Below are positions 30,283-51,821 of a DNA stretch of 64,000 nt, in pieces. The translations under genes and the position numbers were made by a program. Each line of letters opens with the position of its first letter. Positions within the stretch are counted from its first letter, which is position 1. Source of the stretch: Limisphaerales bacterium (GTDB taxonomy: Bacteria > Verrucomicrobiota > Verrucomicrobiia > Limisphaerales > CAZKNW01); the NCBI GenBank assembly GCA_965658675.1, contig CBFHTT010000031.1:51320-115319 (forward strand), given 5' to 3'. The notes below the pieces were generated by a model, which worked only from the letters and a program-made list of their open reading frames with translations, ran no database searches and had not been told where the DNA came from.

Positions 30283-30921
30283 ATGCAAGGACTGTGGACC
30301 AATGCCACCTCTCCGATAATCCTGCCCATTACGATGGTCATGGGCTTCTTGGCGCTTTATTGGATAATTTTCGCACTAGGATTTCTGTCCTTCGATACCG
30401 ACTTGGCCGAAGTCGATTTCGATGTTGACGCAGATTCCCATTCAGGTGTTTTGGGAGGGATATCTCACTACCTTCATATCGGCGAAATGCCGTTCATGAT
30501 TATCTTCTCGATTCTCACTTCCCTGTTCTGGCTGCTAAGCCTCTTGGCCACTCGCCTCTTCAACCCAGAAGGAGTTTTTGCTCTCGGGCTGGGACTAATG
30601 GCCGGATCGTTCTTCATCGCAGTTCTCGCTACGCACTACATCTCACTCCCCGTCAAGAAACTGTTCAGGGCACTCGACGTGGACGTCGACAAGGCTCCCG
30701 CAATGGTCGGCATAACTGCCACAGTAGTCACATCTAAGGTGACTTCGGATTTCGGTAGAGTCGAATACGTCCACAAGGGAGCCCCTCTTACGGTGGAGGC
30801 CCGTTCTGAATCGCTGCTCCAAAAGGGAGATCAGGCATTAATTTTGGAAATCATCGATAAGAAAAAGCGAATTTTCAAAGTAACTAAACAAGAAACAACT
30901 AAACTGGAGGAAGAATTATGA
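30283..30921 (+). CDS. NfeD/YqiJ-like membrane protein (flotillin partner): N-terminal TM helices plus C-terminal OB-fold-like beta domain.
   Basis: 212 aa. Four TM helices. C-terminal VGITATVVTSKVTSDFGRVEYVHKGAPLTVEARSESLLQKGDQALILEII resembles the NfeD short-form beta-barrel. Stop overlaps the flotillin start (ATGA at 30918). Confidence 0.6.
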   Translation: MQGLWTNATSPIILPITMVMGFLALYWIIFALGFLSFDTDLAEVDFDVDADSHSGVLGGISHYLHIGEMPFMIIFSILTSLFWLLSLLATRLFNPEGVFALGLGLMAGSFFIAVLATHYISLPVKKLFRALDVDVDKAPAMVGITATVVTSKVTSDFGRVEYVHKGAPLTVEARSESLLQKGDQALILEIIDKKKRIFKVTKQETTKLEEEL

Positions 30922-33083
30922 TCCAAGCATTTGCACCAGAATTGGGTGCTCTAATCGGATTCGGCATCGTCGGGTTTGTTATTATCCTATTCATCATTTC
31001 CCGATTCTATAGGAAGGTTGACCAAGGTGTCGCTTTGGTCAGAAATGGGTTCCAAGGGACCAAAGTCTATTTCACCGGCGCTGTCGCCTACCCGATTCTT
31101 CACAAAGTCGAGTTTATGGACATCTCCGTCCATAAGATTGAAATCTCACGCCGCGGTCCCGACGGATTGATCTGTAAGGACAACATGCGTGCGGACATCA
31201 CGGTCAACTTCTTCATCCGAGTCAACAAGGCAGAGGAGGATGTGAAGATGGTCGCCACCACCATTGGTTGTGAGCGTGCGTCTGACGTCAACGCCATCCG
31301 CGACCTCTTTGAAGCCAAATTCTCTGAGGGCCTGAAGACCGTTGGACGTCAATTTGACTTTGTGGAGCTCTACGATTCACGCGATCAATTCCGCGAGCAG
31401 ATTCTCAAGATCATTGGCACCGATCTGAATGGCTACGTGCTGGATGACGCCGCCATTGACTTCCTCGAGCAGACCCGCGTCGAAGACCTCAATCCAAACA
31501 ACATCCTTGATGCAGAAGGTATCAAGAAGATCACAGACCTCACTGCCGTTCAGGCCAAGCTCGCCAACCAGATCACCCGCGATAAGGAAAAGGTGATCAA
31601 GAAGCAGGACGTGGAGGCAAAGGAAGCCATCCTAGAACTTGAAAAACAGCAGGCTGAAGCCGAACAGAAACAGACCCGCGAGATTGCTACCATCACCGCC
31701 CGTGAAGTAGCCGAAGCACAGAAGGTCGAACATGAACAACGCCTCAAATCTGAGCAGGCTCGAATCAATTCCGACGAGGAACTCCAGATCGCTGAAGAGA
31801 ACAAGAACCGTCAGGTCATTGTTGCAGCCAAGAACAAAGAACGGACCGAAGCGGTCGAAACCGAGCGTGTTGAGAAAGATCGCCTGCTCGAAGTAACGGA
31901 GCGCGAGCGCATCGTCACTCTGGCCCAGATCGAGAAAGAGAAGGCAGTCGAGGTCGAACAGAAGAAGATTCAAGACGTCATTCGCGAGCGTGTCATGGTC
32001 GAGAAGTCCGTGGTCGAAGAGAAAGAGAAGATCAAGGATACCGAGGCCTTTGCTGCAGCCGATCGTCAGAAGAAGGTCGTTGTCACCGAAGCCGAAATGA
32101 AGGCGGAAGAGAACCTCGTTCAAGAGATCAAGGCAGCAGAAGCAGCCAAGAAGGCAGAAGAGCTCAAGGCAGACAGAGAAGCCTACACCGTCGTCAAGTC
32201 GGCAGAAGCCAAGAAGACTGCCGCAGAGCGCGAAGCAGAAGAGATCGTCATCAAGGCCGATGCATCACAAGAAGCAGCAGAGCGCGATGCCGCTGCCAAG
32301 AAGATGCTCGCCGAAGGAACCGTGGCCGAGACCGCAGCTCCTGGTCTGGGCGAAGCACAGATCATCGAAGCCAAGGCCGCAGCAGCAGAGAAAGAAGGTA
32401 CTGCAGAAGCCAAGGTCATGGAACTGAAGTTCGGAGCCGAGGCCAAGGGCACCGAGCAGAAGATGACTGCCGAAGCCACAGGAACAGAGAAGCAACTCAC
32501 CGCCGAAGCAGTGGGTGCCGAACGCAAGTTCGCAGCCGATGCGAAGGGTATCACCGAGAAGGCGGAAGCCATGAAGATCTTCGATGGTGTCGGTCGCGAG
32601 CACGAAGAGTTCAAGTTGCGCCTCAACAAGGACAAGGAAGTCGAACTGGCCTCCATCAATATCCAGAAGGATGTCGCAGGACATCAGGCAGAGGTCCTCG
32701 GCGAAGCACTCAAGAATGCCAAGGTCGACATCGTCGGCGGCGACATTCAGTTCTTCGACAAGATCGTCAATGCCATCACTACTGGTAAGGCAGTCGATCG
32801 CACTGTGAAGAACAGCGATACGCTCACGGACATCAAGGAAACCTTCTTCAACTCGGATCCGGATTACTTCCGCGAGCAGATGAACAAGTTCCTGAACCAG
32901 TTCGGATTCTCTTCCGAGGATGTGAAGAACCTCTCCATCGCTTCTGCCCTGGGCAAGATGATCCAAGGCAGTTCCGGTGAGAACAAGGCAACACTGCAGC
33001 GCATGCTCTCCGTCGCTGAGAATCTGGGCCTCCAGGATCAGTCTGTTTCCAACGTCCTCACTTCAGGTATCAGCAACTCCTGA
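30918..33083 (+). CDS. Flotillin-like SPFH/Band-7 protein (YqiK/FloT family) with long Glu/Ala/Lys-rich coiled-coil repeat region.
   Basis: 721 aa. N-terminal membrane hairpin IGFGIVGFVIILFIISRFY. SPFH core VALVRNGFQGTKVYFTGAVAYPILHKVEFMDISV. About 350 aa of EA-rich helix with 11-residue repeats. Confidence 0.85.
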   Translation: MIQAFAPELGALIGFGIVGFVIILFIISRFYRKVDQGVALVRNGFQGTKVYFTGAVAYPILHKVEFMDISVHKIEISRRGPDGLICKDNMRADITVNFFIRVNKAEEDVKMVATTIGCERASDVNAIRDLFEAKFSEGLKTVGRQFDFVELYDSRDQFREQILKIIGTDLNGYVLDDAAIDFLEQTRVEDLNPNNILDAEGIKKITDLTAVQAKLANQITRDKEKVIKKQDVEAKEAILELEKQQAEAEQKQTREIATITAREVAEAQKVEHEQRLKSEQARINSDEELQIAEENKNRQVIVAAKNKERTEAVETERVEKDRLLEVTERERIVTLAQIEKEKAVEVEQKKIQDVIRERVMVEKSVVEEKEKIKDTEAFAAADRQKKVVVTEAEMKAEENLVQEIKAAEAAKKAEELKADREAYTVVKSAEAKKTAAEREAEEIVIKADASQEAAERDAAAKKMLAEGTVAETAAPGLGEAQIIEAKAAAAEKEGTAEAKVMELKFGAEAKGTEQKMTAEATGTEKQLTAEAVGAERKFAADAKGITEKAEAMKIFDGVGREHEEFKLRLNKDKEVELASINIQKDVAGHQAEVLGEALKNAKVDIVGGDIQFFDKIVNAITTGKAVDRTVKNSDTLTDIKETFFNSDPDYFREQMNKFLNQFGFSSEDVKNLSIASALGKMIQGSSGENKATLQRMLSVAENLGLQDQSVSNVLTSGISNS
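32430..32570 (+). repeat. In-frame tandem 33-nt (11-aa) repeats inside the flotillin coiled-coil (AEAKGTEQKMT / AEATGTEKQLT / AEAVGAERKFA / ADAKGITEKAE).
   Basis: Direct reading of the protein sequence. Four consecutive 11-residue units. Confidence 0.6.
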
Positions 33084-33166
33084 TAGGTCACCCTGTCAAT
33101 CACCGGGGGACTCCAGCCGGAGTCCCCTGCCCTTTCATAGGGAATTCGTGAAACGTCATACAGACC

Positions 33167-36100
33167 ATGTCTGAAGAGGAAACAGAGATTCAGGAAGAAG
33201 AGCAGAGCCCGGATCAGCCCAAGCTTGAGGGGGGTGCCTATGAGATCATCCGTAGCAGGCTGAACTCTCGGGCCTCCGATCTTCGCGATCGACTGGATCA
33301 GCTCAACACGGCACGCAAGGAGGTCTTTGGAGCCATCCCTACTGCCCTGATTGCCACAGAGCGAGTCACCACGGCGAACAATTGCGTACCTCGCGATATG
33401 GTAGCCATCGGCGGCGGCGATTTCCTCTTTGCATACAATGTCCAATTCGGACTGAAGAACGAGATAGATGTCTCTGATGTCCTCGGAGGATATACCTTCA
33501 ATCGGGAAGACAGGACTTTTGCAGAAACGGATCTCCCCTTCCTCAAGGACGACATCTTCGTCAACGATTTCAAGCAGCTCTACAAGTATTACAAAAAGAC
33601 CATCTTTGCGAAGTTTTCATGGATCGGGCCTCACTTGTTCATGGTCTTTCGGATCGGAGATTCCGTAACAGACATCAAGACATTCAAGTGGCTCAAGCGC
33701 GGCGACGAAATGATCTACGAGGGAAACCGAAGCGATCACGAATTCGTCTACCCCACCCAGCATGAGTTTGAATGGAAACGCACACATCGCGACCTGCACA
33801 GGAGTGGTTTACATCCACACATCTCCATCGAAAACCGCGTGTACGTGGAGACTGTCGGCGGAGATCTGACCATCAAGGTCGAGGACAATACTGAGTCCGG
33901 TCACGGGATCTATTCTGAGCCCGTTGAGCAGGAGGATCAGACACTCGATGATGCAGAGATTTTTTACGCCAGTCTTGGCAATCTGATTCTTCTCAAGATA
34001 CGTCCCTATCAGGAGAACGAATGGCGTCATTTCGTCTACAATGAGAAGCTTCAACAAGTCCGGCGAATCGATGCGATGGAGGAATCATGTATCCTCCTGC
34101 CTGACGATCAGGGCATCATCTTCTCTACAGGTTATTATCTTCAGCTTGGTGAGTATAAGGAATTCCCCTCTGAACTGAGCAACATGATGTTTGAGCGCCG
34201 CATTCAGGCGCCAAACGGCGAGGACTTTCTCTACGTTTTCTACAACCGCAAGTCCGGCACCTATGTGTTGATGTCCTACAACATCATTGAGCAGCGGGTG
34301 GAGTCTCCGATCACCTGCAACGGCTTCAGCACCTTTGCCAATGGAGAACTCGCCTACTTCAAGGCTCAGGACGATCCACAGAAACACCACGTCATCCAAA
34401 TCTGGCAAACTCCCTACGTGGATGGCGACCTCCCCATCACCGAGAAAAGTGATTCAAAGCTATTCAAGATCGGCAACCCTTCCATTGTCCGATGCATGGC
34501 AGAGTGTCAGGAGATTCTGACGCTGCTGGGAAAAGAGGATTCCTACGCCGGTCTTTATATTGATCTGGTAAAGGATTCCGCATCCGTCGTGGATGCCTAC
34601 TTCTGGATCGGCGACGAAGAGACCTTTGACCTGAAGACGCCTCTCGTTTCCATCAAGGAAGCGGCCGCCAGCGCAATCGATGAATTCGACAAGGTTACCC
34701 GCCTCAAGAAAAACGCGGTCCAAGAACTTCAACGCATCGGAGGAGAAGCAGAGAAGCTCATCACCGAGGCATCCTTTGGACAGATAAGTGACATCAATGA
34801 GTTCGTCAATCGGCTCTCAGGCCTGAGAACAATTAGGGGCGAACTGATCTCACTGAAGGATGTCCGCTACATGGATGTCCCCGCCGTCGATTCCTTGGAA
34901 GAGCGCGTCGCGGAAGTCACAGAGTCCCTTTCTCAAAAGTGCGTCGAATACCTCCTCAAACCAGAAGCACTAGATCCCTACAAGGCGAAGGTGGATGGTC
35001 ACTCAGGCGATGTTGAAAAACTCACAAAAGTAACCGAAGCAAAGCCGCTGGCTGAACAGATCGCCGCCACTGCAAGTGAACTGGAGATGCTCATTGAGAT
35101 CGTCAGCAATCTAAAGATCGAGGACGCCACCCAGACCACACGGATCATCGACAGCATTTCCGAGATCTATGCTCCACTAAATCAGATCAAGGCAGCTCTC
35201 AAGCGTCGCAAATTGGATCTGCAGAAGACAGAGGGCGCAGCCCAATTTGCTGCTCAGCTTCGCCTGCTCGATCAGTCAGTGGTCAATTTCCTCGAAATCT
35301 CCGACACACCAGAAAAGTGTGAAGAGTATCTGAACAAGGTCATGATTCAGATCGAGGAACTTGAAGGTCGTTTCTCAGATTTTGACGATTACGTCCTACA
35401 ACTTTCCGAAAAGCGCGATGAACTCTACACCGCGTTTGAGAACAGAAAACTGGCACTCGTCGAAGCCAGGAACCGCCGAGCGTCCACCCTCTTTTCCTCA
35501 GCCGAGCGAATCCTCAAGGGAATCAAGCATCGCGTGGAGAATCTGGGTTCCATCAATGACATCAATGGCTACTACGCCTCCGATCTCATGGTGGACAAGG
35601 TCCGGGACATCATCACTCAGCTTGAGGAGATTGATGACTCGGTCAAAGCAGGCGACATCCAGAGCCAGCTCAAGACCATTCGTGAAGATGCCGTCCGTCA
35701 GCTGAAGGACCGCTCCGATTTGTTTGTTGATGGCAAAAACATCATTCAGTTCGGTAAACACAAATTCTCCGTCAACACACAGGAACTGGAACTCTCCATC
35801 GTTCTCAAGGACGACGAAATGTATTTCCACCTGGCGGGAACCGGTTTCTTCGAGAAGATCGAGGACTCAGAGTTCATCGCGACAAGAGGTGTTTGGAATC
35901 AGGAAGTCCCCAGTGAAACACCAGAGGTTTACAGAGCCGAATATCTGGCATGGTCTCTCCTAAACGACGCTGAAGCAGGACTCGAATTGAAGGATGCAGA
36001 GTCTGACTCTCCTGCCCTTCATATCAGAGATCTTGCAACCAAATCCGATGAGGAGCTGCTAAAGGTCGTGCAGGCCTACATGGCACCGCGTTATGCGGAA

Positions 36101-38542
36101 GGTTACGTCAAAGGTGTCCATGACCACGACGCCAGCAGCATTCTCAGAGAACTGGTGAACATGCATGGATCCATCGGTCTGTTGAGATTCCATACTCAAG
36201 CCCGCGCCTGCGCATCTGTCTTCTGGAAGACCTGTGATGACGAGATCATCCAGGCAAAACTCCAGTCATTCAGCGTCCGCAACCAACTCTTTCCCGGACA
36301 GCCCACACAGGAGGAATACATTGCGGAACTCCAGTCACTCATCCGAGATTTCTGCGAACAGACCAAACTCTTCCCCTCTCATCTTGCCGACGAAGCCGGA
36401 GAATATCTTTTCTACGATCTGACAAAGGAGCCCGGCCGCAAACACTTGGTGGTCAGTCCACAGGCTGCTGCCCTTCACAAGGCTTTCGACCTTCACCTCA
36501 AGACGAAACACTTTGCGAAGAAGCTCGAAGATGCACGCAAGGTGATCAGCTCCAACACCATTGCAGAGTTCAGTCTCTTAAGGGATTGGTTGACCGCCTT
36601 TCTGAATCAGTACAAGCCAGACGAAGGCCATCCGGCACTGGACGCCGCCTACATCGATGAAGCCTGTGCCATTCTCCTTCGAGGCCTGCTGGATCATCTG
36701 GACATCATCAATGCATCCGTCGAGACCAAGATCGAGAAGCTCTCCGGTAATCACGCGAGAATGGAAGATGGTTCCCTGCTACTGAATTACAACGAGTTGA
36801 TGTCTCGGCTACAGGAACATCAGCGAGAGAACGTCCCCCTCTTCCATCGCTACCACGAGCTTAAGAGTCATCTGATCGAGACCAAACGCAAGGACCTCAG
36901 GCTGCATGAATTTGAGCCGCGCGTACTATCCAGTTTCGTCCGCAACCAACTGATCAACGAAGTCTATCTGCCCATCGTGGGTGACAACCTCGCCAAGCAG
37001 ATGGGCGTGGTGGGTGAAGACACCCGGACCGACCGCATGGGACTGCTGCTCCTGATCTCCCCTCCTGGTTACGGTAAGACGACTCTGATGGAGTATATCG
37101 CCAATCGTCTCGGTCTGATCTTCATGAAGGTCAATGGTCCAGCAATCGGCCACAGCGTCACCAGTCTTGATCCTTCAGAAGCACCAAATGCGAGTGCACG
37201 GGAGGAAATGGAGAAACTCAATCTGGCATTGGAGATGGGTGACAATGTCATGCTCTATCTGGATGACATCCAACACACTCATCCCGAACTCCTGCAAAAA
37301 TTCATTTCACTCTGTGATGCTCAGAGAAAGATCGAGGGTGTCTACAAGGGGGAAGCCAAGACATACGACCTACGCGGCCGCAAAGTCTCTGTAGTCATGG
37401 CTGGTAATCCCTACACCGAATCTGGTGACAAATTCCAGATCCCAGACATGTTGGCCAACCGTGCCGACACCTACAACTTGGGTGATATCATTGGCGACAC
37501 TCGCACGGCTTTTGAGACCAGTTATCTGGAAAACTCACTCACATCCAACCCTGTGTTGAGCAAGCTCAGCAGCCGTAGCCAAAAGGACGTCTACGCCATC
37601 ATCAAGATCGCAGAGAGAGGTTCGCGTGAGAACGTTGATTTCGAAGGCTCCTACTCCCCGGAAGAGATCAACGAGATGGTCGACGTCATGAAGAAGCTCA
37701 TGAAGGTGCGCGACACCGTCCTACGGGTAAATCTCGAATACATCGCATCTGCAGCTCAGGCAGAGGAATACCGGACCGAGCCACCGTTCAAGATGCAGGG
37801 TTCCTATCGTAACATGAATCGCATGGCCGAGAAGATACTCCCAATCATGAACGATGCGGAGGTCGAGGCACTGATCAACGATCACTACAAGAACGAAGCA
37901 CAAACCCTGACGACCGGCGCTGAGTCCAATCTCCTCAAATTTCAGGAAATACGCGGCACACTTGCGGGTGAAGACGCCGATCGTTGGGTGGAGATCAAGA
38001 AGACCTTCAAGAAGAACCTCCTGCTACAGGGAGCTGACGGAAACGATCCCGTATCACGAGTCGTCGCCCAGTTGGCTACATTCACTGCCGGACTGGATGC
38101 CATCCAGACCACTATCGCAGCCGTGAGCAAGGAGAAGAACGCACCTGAATCCAGCCCTGAGCTCATTCAAGCCGTTGAGGAAATCAGCTCCGTCGGAGGA
38201 GCGCTCCAATCAATTGAAAACGCCATTCGTCAGGCTCTTGAAAACACACCAAAGGAATCCGCCCCATCCATCGACCTCACTCCGTTAAGCAATCACCTGA
38301 ACACCTTTGGCAAATCACTCGATGGAATCCAGAAAGCGCTTCATACAAACGCAGACGAATCATCGTCAAAAGGAGAGCTTAGAGTCATCGATGAAGCCAA
38401 CGAAGTCAGCGACTACCAGATCGCCAACATCTCCCGCAGCACCCTGAAACGGATCTGGGAAATCATCGCCACAGAACGTGAACGGGAAGCAAAGAAAAAG
38501 GGGACAGTCCCACCGGAACTGCCCCCTGAAAAATCTGAGTAA
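33167..38542 (+). CDS. Giant (1791 aa) protein with a MoxR-type AAA+ ATPase module near the C-terminus. The N-terminal 400 aa are beta-strand rich and the middle 800 aa helical.
   Basis: Single uninterrupted ORF. Walker A LLLISPPGYGKTTLMEY (about residue 1298). Walker B VMLYLDDIQH. MoxR-like sensor region VVMAGNPYTESGDKFQIPDMLANRAD (compare ATQNP.E.G...LP.A.LDRF). No TM segments. 84 nt downstream of flotillin on the same strand. Confidence 0.8.
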   Translation: MSEEETEIQEEEQSPDQPKLEGGAYEIIRSRLNSRASDLRDRLDQLNTARKEVFGAIPTALIATERVTTANNCVPRDMVAIGGGDFLFAYNVQFGLKNEIDVSDVLGGYTFNREDRTFAETDLPFLKDDIFVNDFKQLYKYYKKTIFAKFSWIGPHLFMVFRIGDSVTDIKTFKWLKRGDEMIYEGNRSDHEFVYPTQHEFEWKRTHRDLHRSGLHPHISIENRVYVETVGGDLTIKVEDNTESGHGIYSEPVEQEDQTLDDAEIFYASLGNLILLKIRPYQENEWRHFVYNEKLQQVRRIDAMEESCILLPDDQGIIFSTGYYLQLGEYKEFPSELSNMMFERRIQAPNGEDFLYVFYNRKSGTYVLMSYNIIEQRVESPITCNGFSTFANGELAYFKAQDDPQKHHVIQIWQTPYVDGDLPITEKSDSKLFKIGNPSIVRCMAECQEILTLLGKEDSYAGLYIDLVKDSASVVDAYFWIGDEETFDLKTPLVSIKEAAASAIDEFDKVTRLKKNAVQELQRIGGEAEKLITEASFGQISDINEFVNRLSGLRTIRGELISLKDVRYMDVPAVDSLEERVAEVTESLSQKCVEYLLKPEALDPYKAKVDGHSGDVEKLTKVTEAKPLAEQIAATASELEMLIEIVSNLKIEDATQTTRIIDSISEIYAPLNQIKAALKRRKLDLQKTEGAAQFAAQLRLLDQSVVNFLEISDTPEKCEEYLNKVMIQIEELEGRFSDFDDYVLQLSEKRDELYTAFENRKLALVEARNRRASTLFSSAERILKGIKHRVENLGSINDINGYYASDLMVDKVRDIITQLEEIDDSVKAGDIQSQLKTIREDAVRQLKDRSDLFVDGKNIIQFGKHKFSVNTQELELSIVLKDDEMYFHLAGTGFFEKIEDSEFIATRGVWNQEVPSETPEVYRAEYLAWSLLNDAEAGLELKDAESDSPALHIRDLATKSDEELLKVVQAYMAPRYAEGYVKGVHDHDASSILRELVNMHGSIGLLRFHTQARACASVFWKTCDDEIIQAKLQSFSVRNQLFPGQPTQEEYIAELQSLIRDFCEQTKLFPSHLADEAGEYLFYDLTKEPGRKHLVVSPQAAALHKAFDLHLKTKHFAKKLEDARKVISSNTIAEFSLLRDWLTAFLNQYKPDEGHPALDAAYIDEACAILLRGLLDHLDIINASVETKIEKLSGNHARMEDGSLLLNYNELMSRLQEHQRENVPLFHRYHELKSHLIETKRKDLRLHEFEPRVLSSFVRNQLINEVYLPIVGDNLAKQMGVVGEDTRTDRMGLLLLISPPGYGKTTLMEYIANRLGLIFMKVNGPAIGHSVTSLDPSEAPNASAREEMEKLNLALEMGDNVMLYLDDIQHTHPELLQKFISLCDAQRKIEGVYKGEAKTYDLRGRKVSVVMAGNPYTESGDKFQIPDMLANRADTYNLGDIIGDTRTAFETSYLENSLTSNPVLSKLSSRSQKDVYAIIKIAERGSRENVDFEGSYSPEEINEMVDVMKKLMKVRDTVLRVNLEYIASAAQAEEYRTEPPFKMQGSYRNMNRMAEKILPIMNDAEVEALINDHYKNEAQTLTTGAESNLLKFQEIRGTLAGEDADRWVEIKKTFKKNLLLQGADGNDPVSRVVAQLATFTAGLDAIQTTIAAVSKEKNAPESSPELIQAVEEISSVGGALQSIENAIRQALENTPKESAPSIDLTPLSNHLNTFGKSLDGIQKALHTNADESSSKGELRVIDEANEVSDYQIANISRSTLKRIWEIIATEREREAKKKGTVPPELPPEKSE

Positions 38543-41768: not shown

Positions 41769-43331
41769 CTAACGAAGGTAGCTCACCAGCCCTTTCCGTA
41801 TCGCTTCGCGGTTCTCTGCGTCCCTGAATTCCGTCGGATTGAAATCATCTGTCAGTACAATACCGCTCTCCGGATTCGTCACCGTCGTTCCCTCATATGC
41901 CCTCTGCACAACTCCCTGAACCTGAGGATGGATGTTGGACATATCCGGTTGCCTCACGAACTCCAGAGTCTCCCGCTTGGATGCGACAAAGAATACGTTG
42001 CCATTTCCTGAATGATGGATCCTCACCGAGCTGAAGACCGACTGCAGTGTCTGATCCAATGACGATGTGAAGAAATCCTGCCCCGGCTCAAAATTTCCAA
42101 AACTGTTGATCACCAAGACAGCCTCATTTGACATGACTTTGGCGATCCCTTGAAAGGCCTCCTTTGACATCAGATGCGACGGAGATGCATCGCCAAGGAA
42201 CGCATCCAAAATCACACAGTCATATTGCTCATTGCTCTCGTTTACGAAATGGCGACCGTCGTCGATGACAATGTTCATGCGATCTGGCTCCAGCCCAAAA
42301 TACTGTTTCCCCACATCGACCACCTCTGGATTGATTTCCACCACATCCACCTCGACTCCCTCGTCCACAAGGTCCATAGGCACAATTCCCACGCCCAACC
42401 CAATGCAGAGCGTCTTTTCGTTCTGTGGCACATAGACCTTGGACAAGCCATGAAGCATGTATGTGAAAAGCGTTGTGCTCTGTTCCGTTGCCGGATCGTA
42501 AATATTCTGTGTCAGGCGATCATTCAGGTAGTAGAGATATCCCGAGTCCTTTGCCTTCCAGACGCGCAAGTCTCCAAAATTTGAATTGCGGCGATCCAAC
42601 TCATCAAAGTCCTTTGAATCCATTGTCAGGTCTGCCCGCGCAGCCAATCCTCCGATCAAGAGCGCCACCACACTAACGCCCGCGGCCTTCACCTTCCCTG
42701 CCTTCAATCCCCAGATCGCAAAATAGCTTCCACCCAACACAAGCAACACCAATGAAGTTACCCACATGGTCACCGAATTCGGCATGAGAGGGATCAGTAC
42801 ATACCCAATCAACACTGCACCAAAGACACTGCCAAAGGTGCTCACTGCAGAAAGTCGTCCTACCTGTCCGCCGACCTTGGAAAGATCCAACGTAAGAACA
42901 CGGATAAAGAACGGACCAACCGCAGCCAACAAAGTTAGAGGAACAAAGAAGAGGAACATCGAAGCGAGAATCGACCCAACCGACAGCTTGAACCTCAGAC
43001 AACTCAGCGCGACTGCTTCAGTCATTCCCAAGGTCAACGCAAGGTAGACGGCAGCCCCCATGATACAGGCATAGATTCGCTTTAGATCTGCCGCCTTATC
43101 GACCATCCAGCCGCCAAAATAATACCCCACTGCCAAGGACACCAAGGTCACCGATATCTGGGCAGTCCACACGAAATGGGAGGTCCCCAGAAACGGAGAT
43201 AACATTCTGGCTCCCAGAATCTCAACGATCAGGATGCACGCCCCCGTCGTCGCAGCGGTCAGGTAGAGATACCGACGTAACCCGTCACTGATCTCGTCGG
43301 TCTTCTTTGCTTTGTCAGTCTTTGCAGCCAT
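41769..43331 (-). CDS. Polyamine aminopropyltransferase (spermidine/spermine synthase)-like domain fused to an N-terminal polytopic membrane domain.
   Basis: 520 aa. About 7 TM helices in the first 210 aa. C-terminal CIGLGVGIVPMDLV...VDVVEINPEVVDVGKQYF...DDGRHFV...DCVILDAF matches the SpeE-family SAM-fold motifs. Confidence 0.7.
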   Translation of the reverse strand: MAAKTDKAKKTDEISDGLRRYLYLTAATTGACILIVEILGARMLSPFLGTSHFVWTAQISVTLVSLAVGYYFGGWMVDKAADLKRIYACIMGAAVYLALTLGMTEAVALSCLRFKLSVGSILASMFLFFVPLTLLAAVGPFFIRVLTLDLSKVGGQVGRLSAVSTFGSVFGAVLIGYVLIPLMPNSVTMWVTSLVLLVLGGSYFAIWGLKAGKVKAAGVSVVALLIGGLAARADLTMDSKDFDELDRRNSNFGDLRVWKAKDSGYLYYLNDRLTQNIYDPATEQSTTLFTYMLHGLSKVYVPQNEKTLCIGLGVGIVPMDLVDEGVEVDVVEINPEVVDVGKQYFGLEPDRMNIVIDDGRHFVNESNEQYDCVILDAFLGDASPSHLMSKEAFQGIAKVMSNEAVLVINSFGNFEPGQDFFTSSLDQTLQSVFSSVRIHHSGNGNVFFVASKRETLEFVRQPDMSNIHPQVQGVVQRAYEGTTVTNPESGIVLTDDFNPTEFRDAENREAIRKGLVSYLR

Positions 43332-45781: not shown

Positions 45782-47770
45782 TCAGACCTCCTGATTGGAA
45801 GCAAAGCCGAGGGCGTCTTCGAGCCAGTTATCCATCTTGAGAACGGATTTCCGCTGCTTGTATGCCATGCGCTGCGCGTTGGCTTGGGCTCGATGGTAGA
45901 AACGTGCCAGTATGAGAGATCGTCCGGGAACAGGCGTGGCGCTGGCCATATTCAATGACTTCTGGAGCGTCTTTCTGAGGTGCCGCTTCACCAACTCATC
46001 ATCTGCACTGACAAACGCCTGTGCACTTCCAGGATCCCCCTGTCTACCTGCTCGTCCATAAAGCTGTCTGTCGACCCTGCCTGACTCGTGCTTCTCGGTG
46101 GAGATCACATGAAGCCCACCCAGATCTTTAACCCCTTTGCCCAGCAGGATATCGGTTCCGCGGCCTGCCATATTAGTGGCGATGGTGATACGTCCACGCT
46201 CACCGGCATCAGCAATGATACCTGCTTCTTCCTGATGGTGAACGGCATTCAACAGGCGATGAATGAGCCCTGCTTCATCGAGCAGTTTGGAAAGTTTTTC
46301 AGAGGCGGTGACGCTTCGTGTTCCTACAAGGATGGGACGCCCTTTGGCATAAACCCGTTTGATTTCTCCAACAATTCCCTGCCACTTTGCTTCGTCATCA
46401 GGGAAATACCGATCAGGCCATTGCTCACGAATGCAGGGCTTGTTCGTCGGGATCTTCACAACCGCCAGACCATAGATCTGCCAAAACTCAGGAGAGGCTT
46501 CCGCGGCCGTTCCCGTCATTCCCGAAAGACGTCTGTAGAGTCTGAAAAAGCGTTGAAAACTCAGGCGGGCAATTGTCTCGGCCGGGCTACTGATTGGGAG
46601 TCCTTCCTTGGCCTCGATAGCCTGATGCATTCCCTGTCGCCAACTCCGCTGGGGCATGGGACGTCCAGTGAACTCATCCACGATCACGACCTTGTCATCC
46701 ACGATGACATATTGCTTCCCCTTCACATAAAATTCCCGCGCCACCAATGCCTGTCTGAGCAGCTCAAGCCGACGCTCCTCGCTATGCCAGAATCCAGGAA
46801 GATCAGAACAGATCTCTTCAATTCTCCGTCGCCCTTCTGGAGTCAGTTCCACTTCGCGGTATTTGGAAACGACCTTGTAATGGATCTCTGCCTCAAGCTC
46901 ATTCACCAGACGGCATGCAATCATAACCACATGCTCCAACGACTTGTTTTCCTTGGGCGCTGAAATAATCAAAGGCGTCACCGCTTCATCGATCAAGACA
47001 CTGTCCGCTTCATCAATAATCGCTATGTCCACGCCTCGCATCACCAGCTGTTCCCTCGCTCGAAACTCGGGCTTTCCCATCTGCTTTATCAATCTGCGCA
47101 CGGGGCTATTGACCGTTCCGATGCGGAGCCGATCTCTCAAAAAGTCCGCGAGTATCTCCTTACTGGTGGAGTAAGTGACGTCGCAGTTGTATCCCTTTTG
47201 ACGTTCCGGCACCTGCATGTCTCCGGTCACCCAACCCACCCGGACACCGCAGAATTCATAAAGCATCTTCAGCCACTTGGGATCGCGCTTTACGAGGTAG
47301 TCATTCACGGTGATGACATGTGTTGGCCGGCGGGTCCAGCCAGCCAGCACTGCAGCAATGCCTGCCGTCAGTGTCTTGCCCTCCCCGGTCGCCATCTCTG
47401 CAAGATACCCTTTATAGAGAGCCAGTGCCCCCATGATCTGAACCATGAACGGGCGCAGTCCCAATGTGCGCTGTGCGGCTTCGCGAACGGCAGCAAGTGC
47501 GGGAGCTACGTTCTCTTCAACATCTCTCCCTCCCCTGCGAAAGATCTGTCTGAAGGCAAATATCTTTGAGCGGAGTTCATGATCATTCATGGCCTTCCAC
47601 TCATCTGCCTGTGCCTCCACTTCTTCAGCCTGCTTTTCGATTTCTGAAAAGACACTGTTTCCACGCTTCACACGACCGATCACTGTATTCACCGCTGCGT
47701 CCAAGCCCTTGTATAACTTTCGAGGGCTCTGGCAGGAGGCACGGCGATAGTCCTGTGTCGGCGTGATCAT
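45782..47770 (-). CDS. Truncated SecA-like motor ATPase (DEAD motor NBD1-PPXD-NBD2 only, 662 aa, lacking the SecA C-terminal helical scaffold/wing/CTL).
   Basis: LGLRPFMVQIMGALALYKGYLAEMATGEGKTL (SecA Walker A region). IIDEADSVLIDEA (DEAD box). MTGTAAEASPEFWQIYGLAVVKIPTNKP. ATNMAGRGTDI. ESGRVDRQLYGRAGRQGDPGS (SecA motif VI). Start overlaps the stop of the M50-HlyD gene (ATGA). Confidence 0.8.
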   Translation of the reverse strand: MITPTQDYRRASCQSPRKLYKGLDAAVNTVIGRVKRGNSVFSEIEKQAEEVEAQADEWKAMNDHELRSKIFAFRQIFRRGGRDVEENVAPALAAVREAAQRTLGLRPFMVQIMGALALYKGYLAEMATGEGKTLTAGIAAVLAGWTRRPTHVITVNDYLVKRDPKWLKMLYEFCGVRVGWVTGDMQVPERQKGYNCDVTYSTSKEILADFLRDRLRIGTVNSPVRRLIKQMGKPEFRAREQLVMRGVDIAIIDEADSVLIDEAVTPLIISAPKENKSLEHVVMIACRLVNELEAEIHYKVVSKYREVELTPEGRRRIEEICSDLPGFWHSEERRLELLRQALVAREFYVKGKQYVIVDDKVVIVDEFTGRPMPQRSWRQGMHQAIEAKEGLPISSPAETIARLSFQRFFRLYRRLSGMTGTAAEASPEFWQIYGLAVVKIPTNKPCIREQWPDRYFPDDEAKWQGIVGEIKRVYAKGRPILVGTRSVTASEKLSKLLDEAGLIHRLLNAVHHQEEAGIIADAGERGRITIATNMAGRGTDILLGKGVKDLGGLHVISTEKHESGRVDRQLYGRAGRQGDPGSAQAFVSADDELVKRHLRKTLQKSLNMASATPVPGRSLILARFYHRAQANAQRMAYKQRKSVLKMDNWLEDALGFASNQEV

Positions 47771-49952: not shown

Positions 49953-51821
49953 CTACCACCAGAGCCACATGCGAAGGAAGTCGACTGTCTTGTGAGTAAA
50001 GATCCAGGCCAGTGTTCGTTTCTCCACATTGATCTTGGATAATCCAGCCATTCCCGGCCGCCACCAATCTTGGATCTCATCCTCAAATTCCAGGCGAACC
50101 ATGAAGCGATTTCCATCTGTGCGAGGAACAGCAGCCGGCTCAATCCGTGTGACCTTCATCGGGAACTTCAGATTCGGCCGACTGAACAACGCGATCTCTG
50201 CCGACTCAGAATCCATGATCTCGTGAATATCAGCTTCATCCACCTCCGCCTCCACATACAGACGGTCCAATCTGGCAACACGATAAAGGGCATCACCCTG
50301 ACTTACGGGGGCTCCAATACGTTCCTCCAGATCGCCCTCTACCACAAAGCCTTCAAAAGCCACCTTCACCTCAGCCAGTTCCAGCCGATGACGGATCAAC
50401 TCCCATCTTGCCTCTGACTGTTCTCCCAGAGCCTGAGCGATCTGCATCTCAGCCAGCTTGCCAGCCGCACGAGATTTCTCAGCCTCCTTTCGATAACGAT
50501 TGAGATCAGCGATGGCCGAAGCCTCCTCCAGTAACAGATCTTCGGTATTGAGGCGAAGCAGTGGTTGATCCTTCTTCACCAGATCACCCGTCTTCACCAA
50601 CACCTCGTCGATATAACCATTGTAAGGAGCCGTCAGGAAAGACACCTCTTCACTACGAATGATAAAATCAGCCTCCACCCGATAAGGAACACGCACGAAG
50701 AACAAGATAGCCAACAACGTGGCAATCAACACGGTGAGGACCTTGGCCCATGTATGCTCTGGTCCAAGGATCTTGGATGCCTTTTCCTTACACGACGCGG
50801 CCATTCGGGCGCCAAACCATCGGTCATTCTTTTTCAGATCGGCCAGTCGCGGAATGACCTGATCACCGATCAGGCGCAGTTGCTGAAGCTCGACCTCGGT
50901 AAATGCACCGCTCTGCCGCTCACAGGTCAGGACAGCAACGGGTTCTTCTTCCGAGCGAAGTGGAGTGGAACAAATAAAATCAACAGCCTGACTGCGGGCG
51001 AACTTCTCGTGATCCCGATTGACGAACGTTGCCTCTTGAGGCGACGGAAACACAATCTCTTCATCCTGATCATGGGCCTCCTCCATTGCTGCCTCCAGAT
51101 CTGTGACTGAAGACATGTTCTTCTCAAACTTCTCAGTCCGACTGATGGACTGCATCTTGATGTATCCGCCCTGCAACCATCCAAGGCTGACTCGATCACA
51201 CTGAAACTTGGTGGCAACGGAATTACAGAGAGCCAACGTCGATGAAAGAAAGCGCTTCTCTTCATTCACCTCAGCCAGCACATCCATGGCTACAGCCATG
51301 CGCTCTGCTTCCAGTCTGGCTTTCTCGACGCGACCTGCAGCCTGAAACGAAACAGGTAGATCCGCTATCAATTCAAGACGGGCCAACATCTCCTGCGCCC
51401 GGTCCAGAGTGATATGGGTCAGCAAAAAGGCACCGACACAAACATCCTGTTCCTGATCGAGCTTCAACCGGATTCCGACAGCAAAATTTCTGAGCCCTTC
51501 CGGATCTGAAGAGCCAACTGATTGAAGGTGCTTTTCTTTATCAGCGCATACTCCTGCCAAGCCTCCCAAAACCTGGGAAAACTCCAGAACGACAGGGCTA
51601 TTGTCCGCCTTCTGTGGCCACTCGCCTATCTTCTTGAGTGGTTCATCGCCTGCCTTCTTCAGGATCAACACACCTCGCTTGGCATTCACCAATCGGGATG
51701 CGGCATCCAAGAAGCGTCGCCAAAAGTCCGACGGCGATCCACTGAAAGAACGAAGTTCCTGAAGATCCTGCTGAGCCTCTTCAGAGGGTTGTGGGGAATG
51801 CCCCGTCTTTTCTTCAGCCAT
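49953..51821 (-). CDS. HlyD-family membrane-fusion protein with N-terminal cytoplasmic GAF-like domain.
   Basis: 622 aa. About 330 aa soluble N-terminus with GAF-like alpha/beta pattern. Single TM WAKVLTVLIATLLAILFFV. Periplasmic HlyD-like coiled-coil plus lipoyl/beta-barrel region (VKKDQPLLRLNTEDL). Confidence 0.65.
   Translation of the reverse strand: MAEEKTGHSPQPSEEAQQDLQELRSFSGSPSDFWRRFLDAASRLVNAKRGVLILKKAGDEPLKKIGEWPQKADNSPVVLEFSQVLGGLAGVCADKEKHLQSVGSSDPEGLRNFAVGIRLKLDQEQDVCVGAFLLTHITLDRAQEMLARLELIADLPVSFQAAGRVEKARLEAERMAVAMDVLAEVNEEKRFLSSTLALCNSVATKFQCDRVSLGWLQGGYIKMQSISRTEKFEKNMSSVTDLEAAMEEAHDQDEEIVFPSPQEATFVNRDHEKFARSQAVDFICSTPLRSEEEPVAVLTCERQSGAFTEVELQQLRLIGDQVIPRLADLKKNDRWFGARMAASCKEKASKILGPEHTWAKVLTVLIATLLAILFFVRVPYRVEADFIIRSEEVSFLTAPYNGYIDEVLVKTGDLVKKDQPLLRLNTEDLLLEEASAIADLNRYRKEAEKSRAAGKLAEMQIAQALGEQSEARWELIRHRLELAEVKVAFEGFVVEGDLEERIGAPVSQGDALYRVARLDRLYVEAEVDEADIHEIMDSESAEIALFSRPNLKFPMKVTRIEPAAVPRTDGNRFMVRLEFEDEIQDWWRPGMAGLSKINVEKRTLAWIFTHKTVDFLRMWLWW

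Follow-up and report, generated by a model that had tools for sequence, protein, structure and literature searches.

Downstream of genes for a YqiJ/NfeD-like protein and a YqiK-type flotillin: a giant soluble AAA+ protein that most likely serves flotillin membrane scaffolds as their ATP-driven partner

To our knowledge, the actual function of bacterial flotillins is still unclear. In the HflK/HflC-FtsH complex an SPFH cage encloses an AAA+ protease at the bacterial inner membrane. MoxR proteins (CbbQ, NorQ, RavA) are AAA+ proteins of about 250-500 aa that work with VWA/MIDAS partners, and dynein and midasin (Rea1/Mdn1) carry six concatenated AAA+ modules in each chain. In E. coli the genes yqiJ and yqiK, homologues of the two upstream genes of the cassette described here, stand in the identical order, and in E. 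coli K-12 no giant ATPase gene follows yqiK. A computational study, Ravi et al. 2024 (PMC11237479), has already described an operon with a flotillin and a giant ATPase and recognised abbreviated operons without the CesT/Tir-PspA dyad. The operon agrees with ours in gene order and in domain architectures, and our Bacteroidota loci match the full arrangement exactly. The description of Ravi et al. contains no structure-based AAA+ clade assignment, linkage statistics or experiments, and the likeness is one of gene order and domains.

The window, i.e. the whole stretch of 64,000 nucleotides analysed here (Limisphaerales bacterium, contig CBFHTT010000031.1), contains an abbreviated three-gene form of this operon. 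The flotillin and the YqiJ/YuaF-type multi-TM protein are present, while neither CesT nor PspA accompanies them, unlike in the full operon of Ravi et al., and the CesT/Tir-PspA dyad is absent from the entire 64-kb window. The features of the cassette, in coordinates of the window, are the following:

30283..30921, + strand: first cassette gene, YqiJ/NfeD-like multi-TM membrane protein, 212 aa from the first ATG
30918..33083, + strand: YqiK-type flotillin, 721 aa, with a TM helix at the N-terminus, SPFH/band-7, a long E/A/K-rich coiled coil and a conserved C-terminal region
33105..33127, + strand: perfect 9-bp GC-rich hairpin GGGGACTCC / AGCC / GGAGTCCCC, read from the sequence
33167..38542, + strand: giant AAA+ protein gene, 1791 aa, cytoplasmic; Pfam DUF3686, DUF7902 and AAA
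33344..34408, + strand: beta-rich head, residues 60-414, about 28 strands, inside DUF3686 (AlphaFold2 block pLDDT mostly 80-92)
34457..35719, + strand: long helical arm, residues 431-851, helices up to 58 residues, resembling spectrin-type three-helix bundles
34964-35212, + strand: DUF7902, residues 600-682, within the helical arm (Pfam)
35741..35857, + strand: small conserved beta domain, residues 859-897 (FVDGKNIIQFGKHKFSVNTQELELSIV...), AlphaFold2 strands, block pLDDT mostly 83-95
35933..36682, + strand: helical domain, residues 923-1172 (AlphaFold2 helices)
36947..37756, + strand: single AAA+ module, about residues 1261-1530 (AlphaFold2 and motifs)
37058-37084, + strand: Walker A SPPGYGKTT, from the sequence (PPGYGKTT is residues 1299-1306, nt 37061-37084)
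37253-37273, + strand: Walker B LYLDDIQ, residues 1363-1369 (LYLDD at 37253-37267)
37328-37369, + strand: predicted pre-sensor-1 beta-hairpin, residues 1388-1401 (model)
37400-37468, + strand: AGNPYTESGDKFQIPDMLANRAD (AGNP...NRAD), residues 1412-1434, with the sensor-1 strand VSVVMAGN(1414)P and the candidate arginine finger R1432 in ANRAD
37757..38539, + strand: C-terminal extension, residues 1531-1791 (AlphaFold2 model and conservation profile)

The giant ORF starts with ATG and runs uninterrupted through 1791 codons to a single stop at its end, and 120 homologues of 1640-1906 aa align collinearly with its product, covering 91-100% of the query with 53-65% identity. These two observations rule out a reading as two genes joined by an unnoticed frameshift, which the first-pass annotation of this DNA had named as a possible flaw in its own interpretation. 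The family comprises more than 4800 homologues with 53-65% identity over the full length, found in Planctomycetota, Verrucomicrobiota, Bacteroidota, Desulfobacterota, Acidobacteriota and other phyla, and mean column identity across its alignment is 58%. One sequence (P0001), located on metagenome contigs with unchanged neighbours, is 100% identical to the giant protein. In Pfam searches DUF3686 matches residues 38-479 with its full profile (positions 1-448; 604.5 bits against a cut-off of 25, E 1.3e-181), DUF7902 scores 103.7 bits (E 6e-30), and AAA and AAA_5 both exceed their cut-offs. DUF3686, DUF7902 within the arm, one C-proximal AAA+ module and the collinearity place the protein in the DUF3686/DUF7902 family. 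Assignment to a well-characterised family, the other outcome that could have changed the picture, did not emerge from the profile searches: we found no experimental work on DUF3686. More generally, literature searches returned no experimental study of any family member and no papers on DUF3686, PF12458 or 'DNA repair ATPase' in connection with flotillin. The giant protein is a new member of a known, experimentally uncharacterised family. Its highest 19-residue Kyte-Doolittle mean is only 1.23, and it therefore has no transmembrane segment.

The YqiJ/NfeD-like protein matches Pfam YqiJ_N (E 4.4e-5) and, over residues 62-188, E. coli YqiJ (BLASTP E 5e-7), and it has hydropathy peaks of 2.2-2.3. 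Public gene calls place the start of its gene at 30349 (190 aa), and the end of this gene shares 4 nt with the beginning of the flotillin gene. The identity of the 721-aa protein as a YqiK-type flotillin is settled only by the family profile (A2), which aligns with E. coli YqiK at hhalign probability 100% (E 2.3e-41, columns 13-430 against YqiK 15-421) and also matches the coiled-coil region of QmcA (E 2.5e-5). Pfam searches with this protein and 21 homologues gave no match, the Band_7 and Flot models included, and a direct PDB sequence search of the 721-aa protein did not detect an SPFH domain. Compared with the E. coli yqiJ-yqiK and B. subtilis yuaF-floT operons, this flotillin subfamily has diverged beyond the reach of both Pfam models. 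Since Band_7 and Flot do not detect the partner flotillins, SPFH surveys relying on them probably miss the subfamily. The bulk of the flotillin is predicted to face the cytoplasm because its single N-terminal TM helix (KD19 hydropathy 2.92 at residue 9) is followed by the basic residues of RFYRK. In the 83-nt gap between the flotillin and giant genes the hairpin at 33105..33127 is not followed by a T-run and was not called by the terminator scan; the promoter and terminator scan of the sequence was not above shuffled expectation.

Linkage between the genes is strong in both directions. In 59 of 63 genome loci the gene immediately preceding the giant gene, in the same orientation, encodes a flotillin homologue (median gap 201 nt); in 4 of the 63 the giant gene stands alone. 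Reciprocally, a search started from the flotillin finds the giant gene immediately downstream at 74 of 75 metagenome loci. At least seven phyla show the pairing. A YqiJ/NfeD-like homologue precedes the flotillin gene in 46 of 61 loci according to tblastn and in 58 loci according to clustering. Across the 80 genome loci the additional conserved genes encode PspA (13), a CesT-like protein (11) and a divergent XRE/S24 regulator (11), all in Bacteroidota; no other gene is conserved there. A conserved fourth gene in the larger flotillin-giant gaps was considered and dropped, as the inserts are heterogeneous. The genes flanking the cassette in the window (BlaI-like repressor, HAD-Nudix, MFS, fused MFS/spermidine synthase, SDR and ClC) are likewise not conserved with it, so that the proximity of the spermidine-synthase gene is probably a coincidence. 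Note that a polyamine link of the operon was mentioned by Ravi et al. 2024 (PMC11237479).

AlphaFold2 was run on two halves of the giant protein (pLDDT 81.8 and 82.8) with input alignments of 43 sequences and coverage up to residue 1700. Together with a motif scan and hydropathy it returned much the layout proposed in the first-pass annotation: a beta-rich head, a helical middle, a single C-proximal AAA+ core and no TM segment. A helix (residues 25-54) precedes the head, which is always N-terminal, in proteins of 1600-1930 aa when complete. The earlier suggestion of a propeller or other beta-sandwich domain came from three aromatic beta motifs (residues 86-94, 157-165 and 354-371), and among the Foldseek PDB matches listed for the head every one contains beta-propeller domains, for example Elp1 (E 2.6e-6) and the WDR domain of DCAF1 (E 2.8e-6, TMt 0.42). 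Superposition of the modelled head on solved propellers is weak (TM 0.42 or lower), and the matches weakly suggest a divergent beta-propeller-like fold.

The helical middle, previously taken as about 800 aa, consists of the long helices at 431-851 and the domain at 923-1172, but it is not continuous: the small beta domain at 859-897, with invariant G863, F867, N870, Q872 and H888, interrupts it. The domain at 923-1172 is the least conserved structured part (column identity 0.30-0.46) and has no Pfam match; it contains the invariant motif R975-x2-E-x-Y-x-K-G-x-H-D-x-D (KGVHDHDA, nt 36110-36133). Hidden catalytic domains were not found in the helical regions in Pfam at E up to 10. The stretch after the core, earlier described as about 330 helical residues, is made up of the AAA+ lid, conserved helices from 1531 to about 1690, including an invariant RTEPPF-x-x-QGSYRNMN block, and a variable tail. 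This tail (about residues 1650-1791) is poorly conserved (12-20% column identity), and the AlphaFold2 model, of low confidence there, extends to residue 1700 only.

The whole giant protein has one P-loop and one hhhhD[DE] motif only, and the positions given earlier for Walker A, Walker B and the sensor region were reproduced, as was the single core, which is closed by a helical lid. An active site in the AAA+ module is likely, since K1304, D1366/D1367, N1414 and R1432 are invariant across phyla. Walker B reads LYLDD, both D1366 and D1367 being invariant in 15 and in 43 sequences, and the canonical hhhhDE is absent. With D-D in place of D-E, ATP turnover may be slow or switch-like. Sequence searches are topped by p97 and RuvB, but over the stretch from Walker A to Walker B only, which is the first half of the domain; PF00004 also matches over its first half only, whereas AAA_5 is matched over nearly the whole profile (26.4 bits). 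In the AlphaFold2 model the fold is that of the pre-sensor-1-hairpin/helix-2-insert group and is nearest to known MoxR structures. On this one model, with a margin of about 3 Z units, the module is placed in the MoxR/dynein/midasin structural group. Judged by the hallmarks of the classical AAA clade (p97/Cdc48, Vps4, FtsH), namely no pre-sensor-1 hairpin, a second region of homology and closest structural likeness to classical members, the module does not belong there; a pre-sensor-1 hairpin is predicted in it. Compared with dynein and midasin, the giant protein has one module and no microtubule-binding or MIDAS domain. A single module per chain means that any ring must be a homo-oligomer.

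On these results, the most likely role of the giant protein is that of an ATP-driven partner to flotillin membrane scaffolds, because its gene almost always follows immediately on those for a flotillin and a YqiJ/NfeD protein. More specifically, we favour the view, with some reserve, that it is a soluble cytoplasmic AAA+ mechano-enzyme, the third part of a YqiJ/NfeD-like, YqiK-type flotillin and giant ATPase cassette, which remodels the scaffold with ATP. The topologies fit, as the giant protein has no TM segment and the bulk of the flotillin is predicted to be cytoplasmic. The resemblance to HflK/HflC-FtsH, an established case cited in PMC12005517, lies in an SPFH-family scaffold coupled to an AAA+ machine. 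FtsH, however, is a classical AAA+ protease anchored in the membrane, and HflK/C are oriented towards the periplasm, whereas the giant ATPase is soluble, has no protease domain and belongs to another AAA+ group, and its flotillin is predicted to face the cytoplasm.

The AAA+ module sits at the end of about 1200 residues that form the propeller-like head, spectrin-like helical arms and two smaller domains. Judging from structural relatives, the AAA+ domains would assemble into a ring, and such a ring would project several long arms, each tipped by a propeller. The arms or heads would dock on the cytoplasm-facing flotillin/NfeD assembly, and ATP turnover would then assemble, open, reshape or dismantle the flotillin scaffold, or load and unload its clients. 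PspA, whose gene belongs to the same operon in Bacteroidota, would be one candidate client. The protein more likely acts by remodelling or as a lever than by unfolding through translocation, because the nearest structural relatives remodel their partners and do not thread them, and the pore-loop position of the module has no aromatic residue. As a tentative extension, there could be a dedicated ATP-driven flotillin cycle, driven by a homo-oligomeric motor of the MoxR/dynein type whose long spectrin-like arms and propeller heads would take hold of the cytoplasmic flotillin/NfeD cage to open, move or recycle it. Such a cycle would mean that flotillin microdomains in many bacterial phyla are actively remodelled structures and not passive scaffolds.

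The same genes allow other readings. The main target might be PspA (a bacterial ESCRT-III protein), with the ATPase working like Vps4 as a disassembly factor and flotillin and NfeD being a membrane platform only. Ravi et al. 2024 (PMC11237479) reached the ATPase via PspA neighbourhoods, and the cassette is immediately preceded by CesT-like and PspA genes at 27 of 80 metagenome loci and at 13 of 80 genome loci (all Bacteroidota); we consider a main action on PspA unlikely. An ordinary MoxR-type chaperone with its VWA/MIDAS partner encoded elsewhere, which the first-pass annotation had suggested checking, we regard as very improbable. The first-pass annotation had called the core MoxR-like and had wondered at the missing VWA partner. 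The fold group is indeed closest to MoxR structures, and a VWA domain was found neither in the nine ORFs scanned at 27.6-43.3 kb nor in any gene conserved around the cassette at the 80 genome loci. The puzzle itself was misplaced, the conserved partners being the upstream YqiJ/NfeD-like and YqiK-type flotillin genes. Moreover, at 1791 aa the protein is five times the MoxR size, being longer by about 1260 residues at the N-terminus, and its Walker B is an invariant DD; Pfam gives no AAA_3 match, and hhalign against E. coli RavA is weak (7% probability). It is not a MoxR-family member.

Databases name the family 'DNA repair ATPase' or 'MoxR-like ATPase', and the Pfam label of DUF3686 is 'ATPase involved in DNA repair'. 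A function in DNA repair would draw on this label and on weak RuvB_N and RuvB matches limited to the P-loop region, but it is hardly credible: DNA-binding, nuclease and helicase domains were not detected in the giant protein, its conserved genomic context consists of membrane proteins throughout, and no paper was found to back the name. An SMC/Rad50/RecN-type ATPase is also rejected, since Walker A (1299-1306) and Walker B (1363-1367) are about 60 residues apart in one AAA+ domain, without the coiled-coil split of SMC/Rad50; searches of Pfam and NCBIfam gave no SMC-type family. The label 'DNA repair ATPase', carried by thousands of database entries, has no support. We give as little credence to the idea that the cassette serves in anti-phage defence or conflict, with a large NTPase at its centre. 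Defence systems do often include large multidomain AAA+ proteins that carry repeat domains, and PADLOC gives weak matches to IetA and mad8, but these are marginal (E 8e-4 and 5e-3) and confined to the P-loop, the partner genes match nothing and no effector domain was found. The cassette flanks are ordinary and variable, not defence islands, and an identity of 53-65% between phyla, with at least 91% of the query aligned, amounts to housekeeping-level conservation.

The near-constant pairing of the giant ATPase with flotillin suggests that flotillin function includes an energy-consuming step lacking in the E. coli and Bacillus models. The giant gene provides a concrete experimental handle on this, being a single gene that can be deleted or given point mutations against ATP hydrolysis. 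As a side observation, the combination of a propeller with a helical arm gives weak Foldseek matches to clathrin, IFT-A and nucleoporins, which makes it conceivable that the giant protein may have a coat-like role in membrane shaping.

The giant gene is coupled almost obligatorily to genes for a flotillin, predicted to face the cytoplasm, and an NfeD-type partner. The first-pass annotation had reported no VWA gene nearby, which was confirmed (VWA domain in 0 of the 9 ORFs scanned at 27.6-43.3 kb), and had suggested looking for a VWA partner elsewhere in the genome. That search was misdirected: the true partners are the two same-strand genes directly upstream.

Genes of the cassette and motifs of the giant ATPase
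30283-30921, + strand: YqiJ-like gene (Pfam YqiJ_N match; BLASTP to E. coli YqiJ, E 5e-7; several membrane helices)
30918-33083, + strand: flotillin gene (4-nt overlap with the YqiJ-like ORF)
33167-38542, + strand: giant ATPase gene (ATG start, 1791 codons, single terminal stop)
37061-37084: PPGYGKTT, residues 1299-1306
37253-37273: LYLDDIQ, residues 1363-1369
37400-37468: AGNPYTES...NRAD, residues 1412-1434

The flotillin carries a membrane helix at its N-terminus, with basic residues after it, and a long E/A/K-rich stretch. The protein has no Pfam or PDB sequence match; more specifically, Pfam Band_7 and Flot match neither the window protein (E up to 10) nor 21 homologues searched singly (E up to 1). 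Its family profile aligns with E. coli YqiK, a flotillin-family protein of the yqiJK operon, at 100% probability (E 2.3e-41), covering membrane helix, SPFH domain and coiled coil. Together with the YqiJ matches, this alignment therefore identifies the cassette as a yqiJ-like gene, a yqiK-like flotillin gene and the giant ATPase gene. SPFH censuses relying on Pfam have probably overlooked this flotillin subfamily. The gap from the flotillin stop (33083) to the giant start (33167) holds a perfect 9-bp GC-rich hairpin (33105-33127, +; GGGGACTCC-AGCC-GGAGTCCCC) with no T-run after it, which could act in processing, stability or attenuation of the mRNA.

Linkage was followed in 80 ATPase-anchored loci from species-representative genomes of Planctomycetota, Verrucomicrobiota, Bacteroidota, Desulfobacterota, Omnitrophota, Hydrogenedentota and Kiritimatiellota. 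Upstream sequence exceeds 3 kb in 63 loci, and in 59 of these a flotillin homologue (37-60% identity) lies directly upstream of the giant gene on the same strand (median gap 201 nt; larger gaps hold unrelated inserts). The YqiJ-like gene was matched by tblastn in 46/61 loci, and clustering of all ORFs finds it in 58. In the reverse test on flotillin-anchored metagenome contigs, the giant ATPase is directly downstream in 74 of the 75 loci with room for it. None of the window's other neighbours is conserved alongside the cassette in related loci.

Additional genes occur in some operons. Among the 80 genome loci, PspA/IM30 (PF04012, E 4e-41) is encoded in 13, CesT_Tir_1 (PF22550, E 4e-54) in 11 and a divergent XRE/S24 regulator in 11, all of them Bacteroidota loci; metagenome loci have PspA in 27/80 and CesT in 23/80. 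There is no PspA gene in the 64 kb of the window. The regulator, an XRE-HTH + Peptidase_S24 (LexA/CI-like) protein encoded upstream of the CesT-PspA-YqiJ-flotillin-ATPase operon (1944-2741, - strand, in the homologous locus L026, and 10 further Bacteroidota loci), may be a self-cleaving repressor controlling that operon.

The association of flotillin and giant ATPase in an operon is already in the literature as a result of comparative genomics. In their study of PspA neighbourhoods, Ravi et al. (mSystems 2024, PMC11237479) described an operon including CesT/Tir-PspA and a YqiJ/YuaF-type membrane protein; abbreviated operons without PspA were more widely distributed, and 'sub-membrane dynamics' was proposed in general terms for the flotillin-ATPase operon. 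The Dokdonia row of their supplement has a gene order identical to our Bacteroidota loci. From matching architecture and gene order we infer that their ATPase belongs to the DUF3686 giant family. Our literature search found no paper naming DUF3686 or PF12458 or tying 'DNA repair ATPase' to flotillin, and no experimental work on the family. The giant ATPase is a new member of a known, widespread family whose operon has been described in silico.

Regarding the integrity of the gene, the best 120 of over 4800 homologues range from 1640 to 1906 aa, cover 91-100% of the query and share 53-65% identity with it; such similar length and near-full-length alignment rule out a fusion artefact. Several metagenome contigs carry an identical protein with the same neighbours. 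All motif positions in the first-pass annotation match the ORF translation. The whole protein contains one P-loop and one hhhhD[DE] motif, and K1304, D1366/D1367, N1414 and R1432 are invariant in homologue alignments, giving a single, conserved and apparently competent AAA+ site. Both Walker motifs are non-canonical, yet invariant: Walker A (37058-37084) is SPPGYGKT, with Ser in place of the usual first Gly, and Walker B (37253-37267) is LYLDD, with Asp replacing the catalytic Glu. The D-D Walker B may make hydrolysis slow or regulated. No membrane helix is expected, since hydropathy averaged over 19 residues peaks at 1.23.

AlphaFold2 models were built for two overlapping halves, each with a 43-sequence alignment (residues 1-860, pLDDT 81.8; residues 841-1700, pLDDT 82.8, pTM 0.68).

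Predicted anatomy of the giant ATPase (AlphaFold2)
N-terminal tip: disordered, acidic
25-54: helix
60-414: head, about 28 strands
431-851: very long helices
859-897: small beta domain
923-1172: all-helical domain
Between all-helical domain and AAA+ core: short beta element and 37-residue helix
1293-1297, 1318-1323, 1361-1366, 1407-1413, 1433-1437: strands of the AAA+ alpha/beta core
1388-1401: beta-hairpin between Walker B and the sensor-1 strand
To about 1690: lid and more helices

The architecture proposed earlier (beta-rich head, helical middle, single C-proximal core) holds, with a small beta domain within the middle and a variable C-terminal tail to be added. Column identity across phyla peaks in the AAA+ core (79-83%) and head (60-77%) and drops to its lowest values in the helical domain at 1100-1200 (~30%) and the final 140 residues (12-20%). 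The poorly conserved helical domain contains an invariant R-x2-E-x-Y-x-K-G-x-H-D-x-D motif (R975, E978, Y980; KGVHDHDA at residues 982-989, 36110-36133), which may bind metal or serve as an interface; the region carrying it has no Pfam match. A HMMER full-library search with residues 1-480 gave 723 cluster representatives, the domain being N-terminal in every case and complete proteins 1600-1930 aa long, and the head appears essentially restricted to this architecture. Precomputed Pfam lists give some homologues extra ankyrin (P0014, P0073) or TPR (P0063, P0066) repeats besides DUF3686, which would be added protein-binding modules. A full-length member from a eukaryotic protein set (P0028; eukprot, g33011.t1; 1711 aa, 57% identity) could reflect bacterial contamination or horizontal transfer.

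Structural comparison scores of the AAA+ model
CbbQ, a MoxR ATPase (244/267 residues aligned): 15.6
NorQ: 15.3
Dynein motor: 15.0
Midasin: 13.2
ClpB / ClpA: 12.5
Classical AAA proteins (Pex6, NVL, Vps4, Cdc48): <= 11.6

The predicted pre-sensor-1 hairpin fits the MoxR/dynein/midasin group and speaks against the classical clade. Pfam coverage agrees: AAA_5, the dynein/MoxR-type model, is matched over positions 2-125 of 139, whereas PF00004 is matched over positions 1-71 of 131 only. Searches by sequence alone rank p97 D1 and RuvB first, limited to the Walker A-Walker B stretch, and are uninformative outside the P-loop. When profiles are compared, E. coli RavA scores a probability of just 7%. 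The earlier label 'MoxR-like' can therefore be kept, with moderate confidence, for structural neighbourhood and not for family membership.

The giant ATPase is a soluble protein structurally nearest to MoxR, dynein and midasin motors, with its AAA+ module behind a long helical arm bearing a propeller-like head. It would oligomerise via the AAA+ domains, as its relatives do; arms and heads would touch the flotillin assembly, and nucleotide-driven movements would remodel this assembly or its clients, PspA being a candidate where co-encoded. At the pore-loop position the sequence (KVNGPAIGHSVTSLDP) is invariant and has no aromatic residue, and the nearest structural relatives work by remodelling their partners, not by threading; because of this, lever or remodelling action is favoured over unfolding by translocation. 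It is likely that the ATPase works jointly with the flotillin/NfeD pair; the complete statement, a soluble AAA+ motor remodelling the flotillin/NfeD assembly or its clients, we hold to be more probable than not.

A Vps4-like factor acting on PspA is suggested by the Bacteroidota operons, but it fits neither most of the loci nor the AAA+ clade, and we consider it unlikely. An ordinary MoxR-VWA system, failing on partner, size and sequence membership, is highly improbable. Hardly any credence is left for the DNA repair enzyme of the database label, which finds no support in domains, context or literature, or, to the same slight degree, for a defence system, which neither PADLOC nor the conservation pattern of the family supports. 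Near-obligate coupling, quantified in both directions, and a structure-based clade assignment make the case for the remodelling motor clear and testable. On this reading, a large bacterial flotillin subfamily operates with an ATP-driven machine of its own, and the name 'DNA repair ATPase' is wrong in thousands of annotations.

Two observations concern the flanks. Downstream of the cassette, at a distance of 3.2 kb, is a fused MFS/spermidine synthase gene (41769-43331, -; NF037959, E 4.5e-55), and polyamine genes occur in PspA operons (Ravi et al., PMC11237479); the fused gene is not conserved beside the cassette among 160 related loci and its proximity is probably coincidence. Farther on, from 45782-47770 (-) to 49953-51821 (-), a 662-aa SecA-like protein adjoins an M50-peptidase/HlyD-like protein and a GAF-HlyD membrane-fusion protein, which may form an unusual secretion-related cluster.
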